Below, piece by piece: positions 8,327-56,536 of a stretch of 64,000 nt of DNA. How positions within the stretch are numbered: position 1 is the first letter of the stretch; every line of letters begins with the position of its first letter. Under the pieces are notes generated by a model that saw only the letters and a program-made list of their open reading frames with translations, did not search any database and was not told the origin of the DNA. Origin of the DNA: an uncultured Leptospirales bacterium (GTDB lineage Bacteria > Spirochaetota > UBA4802 > UBA5550); NCBI GenBank assembly GCA_964491265.1, contig CAZBFP010000015.1, positions 16,604-80,603 of the forward strand, given 5' to 3'. Position numbers and translations under genes: made by a program.

Positions 8327-8446
8327 TTAGTAAAAATTCTAAAACTTTTTTGTAAAAAAGTATCTGTTCTCCCTGCATTTGGAAACGGCAGAGATATATA
8401 GCTTAAAGTTTTCCCACTGAAATAGATGCTCAGGAATTAGCATTGA
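8327..8446 (-). mobile_element. Family A MITE-like element, degenerate copy
   Basis: End CAGGAATTAGCATTGA and arm CACTGAAATAGATGCTCAGGAA match other copies; flanks TAATATT/TAATAAT. Confidence 0.55.
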
Positions 8447-8476
8447 TAATAATCATAAATTATTAAGGAGTTTTAT

Positions 8477-8587
8477 ATGTTGTACATATGCCCGATGAAA
8501 TGTGAAGGTGAGAAAACATATCCGGAAGCGGTGAAATGCCCTGTGTGTGGTATGAAGCTGAAACCTGCTGAAGAAAAGGCTAAATAG
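8477..8587 (+). CDS. 36-aa standalone heavy-metal-binding-domain peptide
   Basis: [44 protein letters not shown]; stop codon abuts the copA ATG; near-copy of a motif in the CopA N-terminus. Confidence 0.8.
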   Translation: MLYICPMKCEGEKTYPEAVKCPVCGMKLKPAEEKAK

Positions 8588-10855
8588 ATGGCAAAACAAA
8601 ATATTAAACATAACCATGCCGCGTGTATCTGCGGTGATCACGACTGCAGCAGAAAATGCGAAATAAACTGTCAGTGTGCTTTTCAGGAGATGAATCTCAA
8701 TTCGGGGATTAAAATTGTAACCGGAGAGAAAGCTCAAAGCGGAAAATATATCTGTCCAATGCGCTGTGAAGGGGAGAAAACTTATCCTGAACCTGGTGAC
8801 TGTCCTGTTTGCGGAATGCATCTTGATAAGATTGTAGTTTTTGGAGCACCGCCTGATGAAAAAGAAGATGAAATGGAAGCCTATTATTTAATGAAAAGGC
8901 GATTCATTATTGCACTGATCTCTTCATTTCCAGTTTTTATTCTTGCAATGGGTGGAGTTATTCCTGGACTGAAAGATGTTCTTGCGGGTCTTGTTTCACA
9001 TCGACTTAATCTGCATATTCAGTTTATTTTTACATTCCCGGTTGTTTTTTACTCGGGGTTTTTTATTTATCTGAAAGGTTTTAAAAGCATTTTAACTTTA
9101 AACCTGAATATGTTTACACTTATCGCTATTGGTACAGGGGCAGCCTGGATTTACAGTATTGCCGGTGCATTTTTCCCGGAATTTTTCCCGGAAGCTTTAT
9201 TAAATGAGAATGGCACGATCGAACTCTATTTTGAAGCTACTGTTGTCATATTAACACTTGTAATTCTGGGGCAGATGCTTGAAATGCTTGCTCATGCCAA
9301 AACTAATAGAGCTGTGAAGGAACTGTTAAATCTTGTACCTGCTGTTGCTCTGGTAATCAGAGACGGGGTGGAAGTGGAGATTCCTTTATACTCTGTGATT
9401 GTTAATGACCGCGTCAAGGTAAAACCAGGGGATAAGATACCTGTTGACGGAAGCCTGATAGAGGGGAACAGCGTTGTTGATGAATCGATGATAACAGGTG
9501 AACCGATCCCGGTAGAGAAAAATCCCGGAGATAAAGTCACCGGCGGTACAATAAATATGAACGGCAGTTTTATAATGCTCGCGGAAAAAGTGGGAAGCGA
9601 CACTCTTTTGTCGAGAATAATAGAGATGGTTAATGAAGCTTCCAGATCCAAAGCTCCAATTCAGAAAATGGTTGATATAGTGTCAAAATATTTTGTTGTG
9701 GCGGTTTTAGCGTTCTCTGCTTTGACATTCATAATATGGGGTTCTGTTTTAGGGAGATGGGATCTTGGTTTTGTTTACGCCATATCTGTCCTGATTATTG
9801 CATGTCCATGTGCGCTTGGCCTGGCCACGCCTGTTTCAATTATGGTGGGGATGGGTAAAGGTGCAAAGTATGGAATCCTTATCAAGAACGCTTCTGCCCT
9901 GGAGCAGATGAGGAAGGTGAACACAATCCTGGTGGACAAGACAGGAACTCTCACTGCCGGGAAGCCGGAATTACAGGTATTCAAAAGTATCGGCGGCTTC
10001 AGTGATAACGAGATACTGCAGTTCGCGGCATCAGTAGATAATAACAGCAATCATCCCCTTGCAAATACAATTGTGAATTCTGCAAAAGAAAAGAATATAA
10101 ATCTGCTTGAAATTAAGGAATTTAACACCCTGAATGGTATGGGTGTAACAGCAGTTGTAAGCGGTAAAGAAATTGCAGTCGGTAACGAGAAACTGCTGAA
10201 CCATCTTCATGTCAGTTCATTCCCCGATATGACAGAAGTTGAAGGTCTTAGAAAAAAAGGACACACAGTTATGTTTGTCGTAGTAGATAAAAAAGCAGAG
10301 GGTATAATAAGTGTTTCCGACCCCATAAAAGCAAGTACACCAAATGCAGTTGAAGAGCTCCACCGTCGTAAGGTGCAAGTCATTATGCTGACAGGGGATA
10401 ATGAAACTACTGCAGAATCGGTTGCAATAGAGTTAAAGCTTGATGGCTTTCAGGCGGACTGCCTTCCGGAGGATAAATATAATAAGGTTAAATTGCTGCA
10501 GCAGTCTGGAGCCATTATCGGAATGGCAGGCGACGGGATTAATGATGCACCGGCACTCACTCAGGCTGATGTTGGTATAGCTATGGGAACCGGTACTGAT
10601 GTGGCCATGGAGAGCGCATCAATTACCCTGGTTAAGGGAGATCTATCCGGAATTTCGAGGGCGAAAACCTTAAGTGTTCTTGTGATGCGCAATATCAGGC
10701 AGAATCTTTTCTTTGCTTTTATTTACAATACAATAGGTATACCAATAGCCGCAGCCGGACTGCTGAATCCCGCTATCGCCGGACTTGCAATGATACTGAG
10801 TTCACTGTCTGTACTGATAAATGCTTTGCGGATTCAAAGTACCAGTTTAGATTAG
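8588..10855 (+). CDS. copA: Cu(I)-translocating P1B-type ATPase
   Basis: [23 protein letters not shown] and MxxSS motifs; N-terminal Cys/His-rich segment and CPMxC...CPVCGM domain. Confidence 0.93.
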
Positions 10856-10873
10856 AAAAAAAATTAAAAGAAT

Positions 10874-54678: not shown

Positions 54679-54705
54679 GACAGGGTGTGTATTATGCACC
54701 CTGTC
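54679..54705. terminator. Hairpin between convergent ftsZ and OmpA-family genes
   Basis: GACAGGGTG...CACCCTGTC. Confidence 0.6.
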
Positions 54706-54713
54706 ATATTTTC

Positions 54714-56321
54714 CTATTCAGTGAAACTGAATTCAACCCTTCTGTCTTTATCATGTGAAATTCCCCCCTTTACAGGCCTGCTGTCTCCATGATTTACTAT
54801 TCTGATTCTCGATTTATCTATCCCTATCCCTGTTATGAAGGCAGAAACATTTTCCGCCCGTTTCATACTCACTGCATAATTTGCACTGCGGCTCCCCCTT
54901 TTATCGGAGTGCCCCGAAATTGTGAGTTTTAATTCCCGGTTCTCCCTCATTCTGTGAACAATACTATAGAGATAGGGGTAATAGGATGTGGATATTTTTG
55001 AGGAATTGAATGGGAAGTATATATTTTTGAGAATAAAATCGGAGGATGGAGTTTCCTTTTTATATTCAGCGGATACCGGTTTATTACCGCTTCTGTTCCT
55101 GTTAAAATAAACATTGATCTCCTGATAATTATCTGGAATCACCTGGTACTGGATTGTTTCAGAAGGTAATTCCGGGTCTGATGATTCGATAAATATATAT
55201 TTTACATCAGGTTTCGGTCTAACAATAAAAAATCCTCTATCATTGCTTACTCTTTCTGTTGTTCTTGTTATACCGCACCCCTCTTTATCGCATGTATGGA
55301 GCAATATTTTAAATCTGCTGTTTCTAATGACTTCCCCTTTTGCTGCGTTGTAGGGTGTAATCTTTATCCATGTTTCATTCCCCCCGGCAGAGACCAGGGT
55401 CTGTTTCACTACTTCCCTCTCAATTTTTTTTGTACCTGACATATAAATGTCAAAACCTCCATTCCCCCCCTTTCTGTTTGAGCATATAAGAGAAAAGTTC
55501 ACACCATCAATAAAGTAGAGGTCATCTTCAGCAGAGTTGATCATTGGTCCTGCATTCACAGGATCAGTGAATTGATCGTTTTTGCGTATGGTGTAGTAAA
55601 TATCCCATCCGCCGTAACCACCTTCCCGGGCAGATGAGAAATAGTATTTCTCATCTTTCGATTTGTAGGATGGTATAAAGGCAATTTCATAATTGCCGGA
55701 ATTAATATTTTCAGGGAGTTCCCTCACATTTTTGATTCCATCTTTAGTAATGTCTGCCATGAAAATTTTGGACCGGCCCATGTTCATGTAGGGCCACCTG
55801 TTGAAGAAAAAGGTTTTGCCGTCCCTGCTGATTGATGGGGACCTTTCGTTCCAGATTGTATTTATATCACTATTAAGAAGCTGAGGTTCACTCCACTTGT
55901 CATCAAATTTTCTTGAAATATATAGATCGTATGTTATGCGGACCCTGCCGTCTGAAGTTACAGGGGGCATATTCCCGCCAGGCCTGTCTGAAGAGAAAAT
56001 GATACTGTTCCCGTCTGCTGAAATGAAAGGTGTTTCGTCATTATATCCTGAGTTAATTTCTTCAATAGGGAGAGGATCTCCCCAGGAGCCTGAAAGGTTT
56101 CTGATTATATAGATATTGTGGTTATTGTCCCCCGGTTTCTTAGCACTCAAAACAATTATTTTCCCGTCAGAAGTTATTGATGGTGAAAATTCGTCACCTG
56201 CAGAATTAATAATAGATCCGGCATTGGTAAGAGAGCCTGATGTTTTAATATCAGAAAAAAGCGCTGCTGCGGAAAATATCAGAACAGAGATTATGGATGC
56301 TGTAATTACGCTTTTTTTCAT
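54714..56321 (-). CDS. Exported PD40 beta-propeller plus OmpA-like peptidoglycan-binding protein
   Basis: Signal peptide; repeated INS..DE.P.IS.DG and FSS.R.GG.GG.DIY; C-terminal IYFPFNS, GHSD..G...N..S..RA, RRVEF. Confidence 0.88.
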   Translation of the reverse strand: MKKSVITASIISVLIFSAAALFSDIKTSGSLTNAGSIINSAGDEFSPSITSDGKIIVLSAKKPGDNNHNIYIIRNLSGSWGDPLPIEEINSGYNDETPFISADGNSIIFSSDRPGGNMPPVTSDGRVRITYDLYISRKFDDKWSEPQLLNSDINTIWNERSPSISRDGKTFFFNRWPYMNMGRSKIFMADITKDGIKNVRELPENINSGNYEIAFIPSYKSKDEKYYFSSAREGGYGGWDIYYTIRKNDQFTDPVNAGPMINSAEDDLYFIDGVNFSLICSNRKGGNGGFDIYMSGTKKIEREVVKQTLVSAGGNETWIKITPYNAAKGEVIRNSRFKILLHTCDKEGCGITRTTERVSNDRGFFIVRPKPDVKYIFIESSDPELPSETIQYQVIPDNYQEINVYFNRNRSGNKPVSAEYKKETPSSDFILKNIYFPFNSSKISTSYYPYLYSIVHRMRENRELKLTISGHSDKRGSRSANYAVSMKRAENVSAFITGIGIDKSRIRIVNHGDSRPVKGGISHDKDRRVEFSFTE

Positions 56322-56413
56322 CTCACAATACCTCATATAATATTACCTGTAATTTCTATTCAGTTTCACCTTTAATGTAAAGCAAAAATATGGAAATGTC
56401 ACAGGAATATTTT

Positions 56414-56536
56414 TCAGTAATTATTCCTGAAGATATCTTTTTGTGCGATAATGCTGCTTCCAATATCTCCGGCGCCTTCGGTAGCCGAAATGATAGAGCA
56501 TTTGATTGTAAATATAAGTTAAGGAGTTAACACTGA
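56414..56536 (+). mobile_element. Family A MITE-like element
   Basis: TCAGTAATTATTCCTGAAGATATC...AAGGAGTTAACACTGA, 123 bp; CTTCGG loop. Confidence 0.85.

Follow-up and report, generated by a model that had tools for sequence, protein, structure and literature searches.

Family A in the window and in its genome

The 64,000-nucleotide stretch of DNA analysed here (hereafter the window) comes from contig CAZBFP010000015.1 of an uncultured Leptospirales bacterium, whose genome assembly (GCA_964491265.1; G000 among our genomes) comprises 3,814,238 bases in 59 contigs and is 98% complete. The genes of the window are of the housekeeping type: a topoisomerase, amtB-glnB, the mraZ-to-ftsZ cluster, pgi and citrate synthase. 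Copies of a non-coding repeat, family A, are found among them; its consensus is 121 bp long and runs CAG...CTG. We conclude, with a probability of roughly 85%, that family A is a genuine and abundant MITE, short for miniature inverted-repeat transposable element, moved in trans by a transposase that makes staggered cuts. A first reading of the DNA, made from its letters alone and called below the original prediction, had described an abundant repeat with nine copies of about 120 bp, and had noted that the window contains no transposase; the latter point is borne out by a Pfam scan of 51 open reading frames (ORFs) of the window, which returned none.

The abundance of the repeat was confirmed by the genome-wide profile count that had been proposed. 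With the six best window copies as seed and a threshold of E <= 1e-3, nhmmer gave 481 matches in the source genome, many of them overlapping because the element is nearly palindromic and is matched on both strands. Removal of overlaps left 304 loci, 146 of them full length, which are found on most contigs and sum to 30,883 bp, i.e. 0.81% of the genome. The 146 full copies constitute the main subfamily (A1); a second subfamily of about 40 copies has the ends CAATGTTAATTCC...GGAATAAATACTG and likewise possesses 9-bp duplications. The census also holds half elements (32 left and 42 right, of which 20 pair as composites of about 265 bp) and 44 further fragments. Sorted by size, the pairs of termini with matching 9-bp flanks fall mainly into a class of about 120 bp, with 94 pairs and another 14 in the 100-119 bin, and one of about 260 bp, with 13 pairs; a few further pairs measure 40-56 and 200-360 bp. 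The terminal 15-mers of the original prediction proved to be real, with sharp conservation edges. If up to 3 mismatches are allowed, the window contains 18 and 20 matches to them; dinucleotide-preserving shuffles gave 4.1 and 2.9 on average, and none out of 100 reached the observed counts.

Five of the nine predicted copies are full-length A1 elements, and four of these are read on the forward strand. The copy at 12615..12735 (121 bp, CAG...TTG, 113 bits in nhmmer over model positions 2-122) lies upstream of a ribosomal protein S21 gene (Pfam), between the flanks AAAATAAAA and ATAATAAAA, which agree at 8/9 bases. That at 15326..15446, with flanks ACCTGTAGT and ACCTGAAGT (8/9), shows an alternative compensated stem base, ATTGCAC...GTGCAAT. 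The copy at 30498..30614 is only 117 bp long, its hairpin tip being shortened; it has an exact 9-bp duplication, AAATTTTTT, and, folded as single-stranded DNA, forms a long foldback hairpin (-25.5 kcal/mol, z = -6.9). At 56415..56535 (112.7 bits), upstream of a STAS-domain gene (Pfam), the stem is partly decayed and the flanks AATATTTTT and ATTTTTTTA agree at 6/9. The fifth full copy, 29753..29873, is on the reverse strand (96.4 bits, model positions 3-123); its left tip is degenerate (the CAG is changed), and AATAAATAT is found on both sides if the end is set at 29873, an end that is ambiguous by 1 nt.

The remaining four predicted copies are not simple elements of about 120 bp. The one at 21831..21944 (reverse strand) is partial: it covers model positions 9-122 only, and a short palindrome, ATATCCGGTTACCGGATAT, replaces the canonical left end. 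The one at 8328..8445 (forward strand) is a very diverged relative, below the nhmmer threshold of E 1e-3, with a right end AGGAATTAGCATTG (2 mismatches) and an unrecognisable hairpin. What had been taken for copies at 13138 and 15861 are the ends of two composites on the reverse strand: 13139..13404 (266 bp) consists of family-A arms with a palindromic module of about 160 bp, GGGGCTGTCC...GACAGTCTC, instead of the GC core, and 15862..16121 (260 bp; flanks AATGATTTT and AATGATCTT, 8/9) is of the same kind. Two pieces on the forward strand were missed by the original prediction: a truncated right half at 2034..2082, in which the hairpin's right arm and everything up to the terminal repeat on that side are kept, and a mini form of 66 bp at 19352..19417, with two family-like ends, little sequence in between and no hairpin. 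Other mini forms, containing little beyond the two terminal repeats, are found at C2:3941-3981 (41 bp) and C10:59555-59610 (56 bp). One mini form of this 41-66-bp group lies between identical 9-mers, AATAATCAA, suggesting that an element reduced to its ends can still be mobilised.

Ends, target-site duplication and insertion sites

Alignment of the 146 full copies together with 30 bases of flank on either side revealed that information jumps between a T and the left end CAGTAATTATTCC, and drops between the right end GGAATTAACACTG and an A. The terminal inverted repeats are imperfect (CAGTRWTWATTCC): the left end CAGTAATTATTCCT and the reverse-complemented right end CAGTGTTAATTCCT are identical at 11 of 14 bases. 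The original prediction had included the neighbouring bases in the element (TCAG...CTGA) and had assigned it a 7-bp duplication. Under these boundaries the first base is variable (TCAG 70, ACAG 18, CCAG 11, GCAG 5), and the inner 7-mers are identical in 59 of the 146 copies, as compared to 0.78 when flanks are paired at random. The edge bases were studied in a set of 101 copies, those with no more than one difference between the inner 7-mers. In 39 of them the left edge base is not T, and in 29 of these it equals the base after the right 7-mer; the right one is not A in 21, and in 14 of these it equals the base before the left 7-mer. Since the edge bases covary with the opposite flank, the terminal T and A belong to the duplication. 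This leaves CAG...CTG, of 121 bp, as the element proper, with a duplication of 9 bp instead of 7.

With this length, the two flanks are exactly the same in 45 of the 146 copies, against 0.45 by shuffled pairing, and 40 more copies show a single mismatch, against 1.24; in total, 85 copies are within one mismatch where shuffled pairing gives 1.7. The matches are thus far above chance genome-wide, in answer to a doubt that the original prediction had itself raised for AT-rich DNA. Duplications of the neighbouring lengths, 8 and 10, are exact in 7 and 0 copies, and the agreement between flanks is 0.75-0.88 at each of the nine positions and 0.05-0.5 outside them. The target preference is A-(A/T)7-T, with an A at position 1 in 68, and a T at position 9 in 53, of the 85 copies.

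Sites without the element provide a second line of evidence. The left and right flanks of 130 elements were matched separately to the genome, and abutting pairs were sought. Three filled sites have paralogous empty sites, seven in all; the filled ones read flank, 9-mer, element, 9-mer, flank, and the empty ones flank, single 9-mer, flank. The 9-mer is AATTCTTTT at filled site C1:224943 and AATTCATTT at its empty counterpart; it is AAATAATTT at C6:40931, with four empty copies reading AAATAATAT and similar; and it is AAGATGTAT at C46:7651, with empty sites reading AAGATGTAT and AAGATATAT. Exact empty sites, for which the original prediction had suggested a search among relatives, are present as paralogues within the source genome. 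They fall in copies of a different repeat family, within its AT-rich interior; a member of that family lies at 24638-24845 in the window. This repeat of about 210 bp has GC-rich hairpin ends (AGCCCCCTGTCCCCCAAAGGGGGCACG and its inverse) around its AT-rich interior; in metagenome contigs the same interval reaches 10-20 times the depth of its neighbours and shows many 'skips' of 121-135 bases.

Synteny was also examined with four congeners (G001-G004), whose genes are 72-82% identical to those of the source genome. The gaps that hold 13139-13404, 15326-15446 and 15862-16121 measure, respectively, 18-58, 45-49 and 9-34 bp in the congeners (9-58 overall), as compared to 299-318, 177-189 and 280-305 bp in the source genome (177-318 overall). 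The three elements are thus absent from the orthologous gaps in 4/4 congeners, gaps that are too diverged to give an exact junction. Contigs from four sludge runs revealed no joined 'empty' form, which, these being contigs only, proves nothing: they break at the repeats and bridge none except the diverged copy at 29752, which is present in both strains.

As to gene context, our gene calls are crude (the longest ORFs of at least 100 amino acids, i.e. 3,103 ORFs covering 84% of the genome), and not one of the 146 full copies lies inside an ORF. They are distributed over 74 tandem, 56 divergent and 11 convergent gaps, with 5 at contig edges; tandem, divergent and convergent gaps represent 56%, 31% and 13% of the intergenic length. 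In the tandem gaps the two orientations relative to the genes are equally frequent (37 to 37), and 35 of the 74 copies are nearer to the downstream start. The bias towards positions just upstream of genes, which had been reported for most window copies, is thus not there, and the apparent upstream placement is no more than a preference for AT-rich intergenic DNA.

The hairpin core and the palindromic module

The centre of the element is a palindrome, ATATCCCCGCCGCC-NNN-GGCGGCGGGGATAT, in which 14 pairs enclose a 3-nt loop. If one mismatch is tolerated, this core occurs 123 times in the genome and 122 of the occurrences are inside family-A loci; hence the hairpin is a part of the element and not a free-standing repeat. 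The most frequent loops among the 123 are TTC (48), TAC (18), GTA (12) and TAT (10), and GAA is found in 6. The original prediction had read cTTCGg and cTACGg as loops of the UNCG type, but the register of the palindrome pairs C66 with G70 and a c(UNCG)g tetraloop would be out of register. The same GC core (CCCCGCCGCC AAA GGCGGCGGGG) was seen alone, without the MITE arms, in G017 (contig C103, positions 1492-1512 of locus L012), where it is placed between the stop codon of a gene and the left end of an IS231-like IS4 element, adjoining both.

The covariation that had been proposed for the central stem holds both within the genome and across genomes. Over the 14 central pairs of the 146 copies, 48 cells are changed on both sides with pairing kept, whereas shuffling of the 3' column leads to 7.8 (with a maximum of 17 in 1,000 shuffles). 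These cells are spread over 38 copies and represent at least 10 distinct variants, such as ATATTCCC/GGGAATAT, ATACCCCC/GGGGGTAT, ATGTCCCC/GGGGACAT, ATATCTCC/GGAGATAT, ATTGCAC/GTGCAAT and forms like GTACCCGCG/CGCGGGTAC. The outer arms gave no signal in their long-range pairs, where 29 cells are compensated and shuffles yield 22.4. In a set of 12 sequences from 7 genomes and at least 5 genera, 89.2% of the cells pair. Changes on both sides are seen in 9 of 20 pairs, whereas shuffles give 2.7 ± 1.3 and none of them (0/500) reaches 9; a control in which the partner was slid by 1-3 columns gave 2-4 such pairs.

To what extent the stem is maintained after insertion can be judged from copies of different age, with the number of mismatches in the 9-bp duplication as proxy. 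The proportion of Watson-Crick-paired stem cells goes down from 0.916 in copies without mismatch (n = 45) to 0.891 with one (n = 40), 0.881 with two (n = 24) and 0.857 with three or more (n = 37). Between the exact and the 3+ classes the terminal repeats gain 0.039 in divergence, the stem 0.048 and the remaining interior 0.057, the baseline divergences being 0.079, 0.084 and 0.134, respectively. Since decay after insertion is similar in all parts, the low baseline of the repeats and of the stem goes back to their conservation in source copies, as is usual for sequences required in cis for mobilisation. Selection, if there is any, acts on source copies and not on each inserted copy. This suggests that the stem matters for mobilisation, for instance by folding the element so that both ends meet, or is passed on together with the competence to transpose.

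In every age class pairing lies 2-5 points above what is expected, from the divergence of the stem sites, of arms evolving independently, and this excess is due to compensation. The loops bear another mark: GTA is three changes away from TAC and yet its exact reverse complement, and GAA is likewise that of TTC. Template switching in quasi-palindromes both flips the centre and corrects one arm against the other, and we find the compensated pairs and the flipped loops best explained by such templated correction and flipping, arm against arm and at the DNA level, rather than by selection on RNA. Copies that share a compensated variant do not resemble each other more elsewhere in the element than random sets do (0.816 against 0.806 identity for a group of 8 copies, p = 0.39; p = 0.88 for a group of 5), and this test, although of low power, leans towards compensations being recurrent events that occur in place. 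The choice offered by the original prediction, selection on the structure or templated repair of it, survives as an either/or: compensation exceeds both controls. In our reading a transposase, supplied in trans, cuts AT-rich targets with a 9-bp stagger, preferring A-(A/T)7-T, and inserts the 121-bp element. In source copies the GC stem and its 3-nt loop, as intrinsic parts of the element, are conserved like the terminal repeats; in inserted copies the stem decays at about the neutral rate, while templated events inside the palindrome add compensations and flips.

The composites present a different centre. Their module, found in the window at 13183-13345 and 15911-16073 with the ends GGGGCTGTCCAAAAAGT...ACTTTTGAGACAGTCTC, has 74 BLAST matches genome-wide, 44 of them full length (ends GGGGCTGTCCAAAAAGT...ACTTTTGAGACAGCCCC). 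In about 20 cases it takes the exact position that the GC core has in a family-A hairpin, and it does so in either orientation relative to the arms. Copies that stand alone have short triplets at their borders which are complementary and inverted (CTC..GAG, AAT..ATT, AAA..TTT), instead of direct repeats, and the module seems to insert into, or to replace, palindrome centres. Matching 9-bp flanks at a size of about 260 bp imply that the composites moved as units. It is conceivable, though we would not bet on it, that the palindromic centre is a semi-independent, self-maintaining module, whose arms are corrected against each other and flipped, and which serves as a docking site for the palindrome of about 160 bp (GGGGCTGTCC...GACAGCCCC). 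If true, this would argue for a hairpin-targeting mechanism of insertion or replacement, distinct from classical transposition, inside a conventional MITE.

The transposase, rival explanations and distribution

The source genome has no match to PF01609, the domain of IS4, IS5 and ISAs1-type DDE transposases. Candidates suggested by pairs of family ends were discarded: a 5,761-bp pair on contig C4 encloses ordinary genes, and pairs of 2,265, 6,700 and 11,732 bp are due to chance. A shorter pair, of 816 bp, at C36:1810-2625 has family-like ends (4 and 1 mismatches), the 9-bp flanks TTATATTAT and TTATAATAT, and a pair of BrnT/BrnA-like genes of 91 amino acids inside; it could be either a cargo cassette that the family-A enzyme mobilises or, given the AT-richness of the DNA, a pairing due to chance. 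The small contigs carry no matching transposase (one has an IS3-like rve gene), contig ends overlap by 52-55 bases, as expected of an assembly graph, and share no insertion sequence (IS), and an IS256 fragment on C8 has unrelated ends. Models of ISAs1, IS1 and ISLre2 gave matches in 0/5, 0/9 and 0/9 genomes; the ISLre2 control was silent too, so the last blank is weak. An IS1595-like ORF at C11:117551-118756 (402 amino acids, a zinc ribbon and a weak DDE domain, 28 bits for a cut-off of 27; locus L069) has homologues, 40-64% identical, in G009, G010, G013 and G015. It lacks flanking inverted repeats, and its homologues in G009, G010 and G013 are not accompanied by an excess of family termini; we rejected it, since it does not track the element. 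This ORF abuts a C-terminal fragment of a comM-like Mg-chelatase gene, and the same stretch contains an integrase remnant.

In other genomes that carry the family, the PF01609 elements examined have other ends and were set aside; they are found in G015 (a nine-copy IS4-like element and IS1182), G017 (IS4, IS1380, IS701 and IS1634), G016, G351 and G401. The IS4-like element of G015 (loci L016, L018, L020 and L021) encodes a 463-amino-acid transposase, and its nine copies, about 98% identical, have the ends CTAATCATTACCCACAT and 9-10-bp duplications. All four copies examined are inside CCCCC...GGGGG palindromic repeats; relatives of the element, 33-49% identical and mostly from Firmicutes genomes, end in ...TTGACCCACA. 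Like family A, this element (CTAATCATTACCCACATTTCTAAG...) possesses a TAATYATT block; its own duplications measure 9-10 bp, and its subterminal CTAAG...TTAGA hairpin and TAATCATT block resemble the TAATTATT and CTAAAG...TTTAG of the MITE. However, its tip CTAATCATTACCCACAT differs from CAGTAATTATTCC, the ACCCAC tip of its clade (11 further members) is missing from the MITE, and the insertion sites examined are GC-rich palindromes, not AT-rich DNA as in family A. The left end of the IS231-like element of G017, CAATGTCATTAAGTTAAG, has 12 of its first 17 bases in common with the right end of the MITE; its IS4 transposase was rejected as parent, occurring only in G017. Neither the G015 nor the G017 IS4 transposase is present in the source genome. 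A scan of metagenomes with the 14-base left end gave 119 loci, 3 of which have family context, none being an IS, and the others are chance matches.

Duplications of 9 bp are known, from ISfinder summaries, for DDE enzymes of the IS4, IS5/IS903 and ISAs1 types. The anatomy of family A, with its terminal inverted repeats, fixed 9-bp duplication and symmetric target, points to an enzyme of the DDE type, and IS4, IS5 and ISAs1 are the likeliest families behind it. The original prediction, DDE transposition in trans, is thus supported for an element with terminal inverted repeats and target duplications moved in trans, on account of the duplication statistics, the empty sites and the absence from congeners; its DDE part is drawn from this anatomy. 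The transposase would now be absent from the source genome, or unrecognisable there, and family A would be an orphan fossil in it. Several observations weigh against a trans-mobilised MITE whose hairpin is conserved in source copies. The search for an IS with the same termini, as originally suggested, revealed no transposase gene with family ends either in the source genome or in the loci and models of up to 14 relatives, and among source-genome end pairs up to 12 kb apart with matching flanks none encloses a transposase. In the stem, single-sided breaks (153 unpaired cells, plus 60 G.T) outnumber the 48 compensations, and the lack of clustering among copies sharing a variant is weak evidence against spread from variant source copies. 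Finally, the about 20 composites without the GC core still carry duplications, so that the exact core is not essential for movement.

Three other explanations were considered. The element could persist because the host uses its hairpin, as an intrinsic terminator, an insulator or a small-RNA module, in which case selection on RNA structure would explain the covariation. The strong fold (z = -6.9) and the lower divergence of the stem relative to the rest of the interior (0.084 against 0.134) go in this direction, and so does the fact that the top two terminator-like calls in window 12000-31999 are two of the four full copies (30498..30614 on the + strand and 29753..29873 on the - strand), on the element's own forward strand. 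We nevertheless regard this possibility as very unlikely. Single transitions in the stem are symmetric, with 60 G.T and 65 A.C on the plus strand (A.C being G.T on the other strand), and this symmetry, together with the 37-to-37 orientation in tandem gaps, argues against selection on the RNA of either strand. Convergent gaps are under-used (11 of 141 copies, for 13% of the intergenic length), stem pairing falls with age (0.916 to 0.857), and the elements are absent from the same gaps in 4/4 congeners. The T-run begins 8 nt past the 14-bp stem, unlike in the genome's own terminators. As for known RNAs, Rfam found only a tRNA above threshold in the whole window, and its best sub-threshold match on one copy was csRNA, at 38.9 bits for a threshold of 57.

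The second explanation supposes a hairpin element that travels as single-stranded DNA through the action of an HUH (Y1) transposase, or is cut by a hairpin nuclease, as in REP/RAYT, IS200/IS605 or Ssn-type systems. The source genome does have 11 Y1_Tnp matches, and the core is replaceable by another palindromic module and has loops found flipped, but we judge this origin highly improbable and, for the element as a whole, largely refuted. To our knowledge, HUH elements by definition make neither terminal inverted repeats nor fixed duplications; here both are present, with exact empty sites. In addition, the core is not free-standing in the source genome (122/123 occurrences inside family-A loci), and it is absent from the six Y1 loci examined, where the flanking hairpin is different. 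The Y1 (IS200/RAYT-type) matches include C1:52222, C2:86600, C3:6711 and 60233, C4:111382, C12:100517, C13:51516 and C36:13663, and about seven of the set are near-identical ORFs of about 206 amino acids; the hairpin that flanks one of them, AAAGGGGGTCAGAGCA/TGCTCTGACCCTTTTT, is unrelated to that of family A. According to the third explanation, repeats and flank matches arise by chance in AT-rich intergenic DNA, or belong to a duplicated promoter or untranslated-region module that is not mobile. It is true that AT-rich flanks make short matches common, and that 116 of the 119 metagenome loci with the 14-base terminus pattern lack the rest of the element. Chance repeats are nevertheless ruled out by the 45 exact 9-mer flanks, against 0.45 under a shuffled pairing that keeps flank composition, by a reversed-pattern control (0 against 97 and 99 matches in the source genome, and 0 against 79 and 81 in G015) and by the exact empty sites; the explanation as a whole retains a negligible probability.

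The distribution of the family was determined from exact matches to CAGTRWTWATTCCT, forward and reverse, in 401 Spirochaetota genomes. The source genome has 196 and G015 has 160; two genomes of another genus have 57 and 36, G005 has 31, G016 has 21, and one genome of a second family of the same order has 28. In the remaining genomes there are at most 12 matches, mostly 0-3. The reversed-pattern control gave at most 2 matches per strand anywhere, and 0 in the carriers named here, except for a single match in G016 and in the second-family genome. Family A is thus patchy; of the 401 genomes searched, only members of one spirochaete order yielded it. It is also old: copies in the congener G003 are 86% identical to window copies, and outside the hairpin the median pairwise identity in the source genome is 81%, with 18 of 10,585 pairs at 97% or more.

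Several known systems share features with family A. REPs, of 20-40 nt, consist of a hairpin and nothing else, lacking both target duplications and terminal inverted repeats; REP/BIME systems with RAYT resemble the present case in their abundant intergenic GC-rich palindromes and in a genome encoding Y1 transposases, but in the source genome the hairpin is found solely as the centre of an element of 121 bp that possesses such repeats and a duplication. Correia/NEMIS, ERIC, RUP and BOX elements are small, have terminal inverted repeats, fold into long hairpins and may bear signals of promoters or terminators; by the usual descriptions they are set apart from family A by other hosts, ends and duplications (TA for Correia). 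The closest well-described analogue in form, with unrelated ends, is MITEAba12 of Acinetobacter, which the available sections of its description give as 113 bp long, with 16-bp terminal repeats and a 9-bp duplication, mobilised by ISAba12 (PMC6382973). The two have in common a small size, a high AT content, the lack of coding sequence, imperfect terminal inverted repeats, a duplication of 9 bp and movement in trans. However, MITEAba12 has a parent with identical ends (GGCTTTGTTGCACAAA), ISAba12, and was itself caught transposing (PMC6382973), whereas family A has the ends CAGTRWTWATTCC, no parent found, old copies at about 300 per genome and a conserved GC hairpin core. In a prokaryote-wide census, spirochaetes (Leptospira, Sediminispirochaeta, Treponema) average 145.4 MITEs per genome and have a low coding density (PMC11602168), a picture into which the source genome fits as far as the available sections go; those sections of the text do not describe family A, its ends or its hairpin, which may be in the catalogue of the census. 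The left-end 13-mer CAGTAATTATTCC gave no match in the papers searched, and searches for spirochaete MITEs or MITEs with 9-bp duplications returned nothing on family A.

Family A is therefore a new orphan family of an ordinary kind, and as a MITE it is not surprising. What adds to its interest is the orphan status, the evidence that it provides on palindrome evolution, and a second palindromic element that replaces its core. In practical terms, some 300 intergenic insertions and the composites explain many contig breaks and repeated intergenic blocks in the source genome and in related uncultured spirochaetes, and masking of family-A copies should precede the calling of promoters, small RNAs or terminators there. 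The family also constitutes a clean and datable set for the question of why some MITEs keep an internal palindrome and, as an orphan with a 9-bp duplication, can be used within one spirochaete order to fish for a transposase that is undescribed or extinct.

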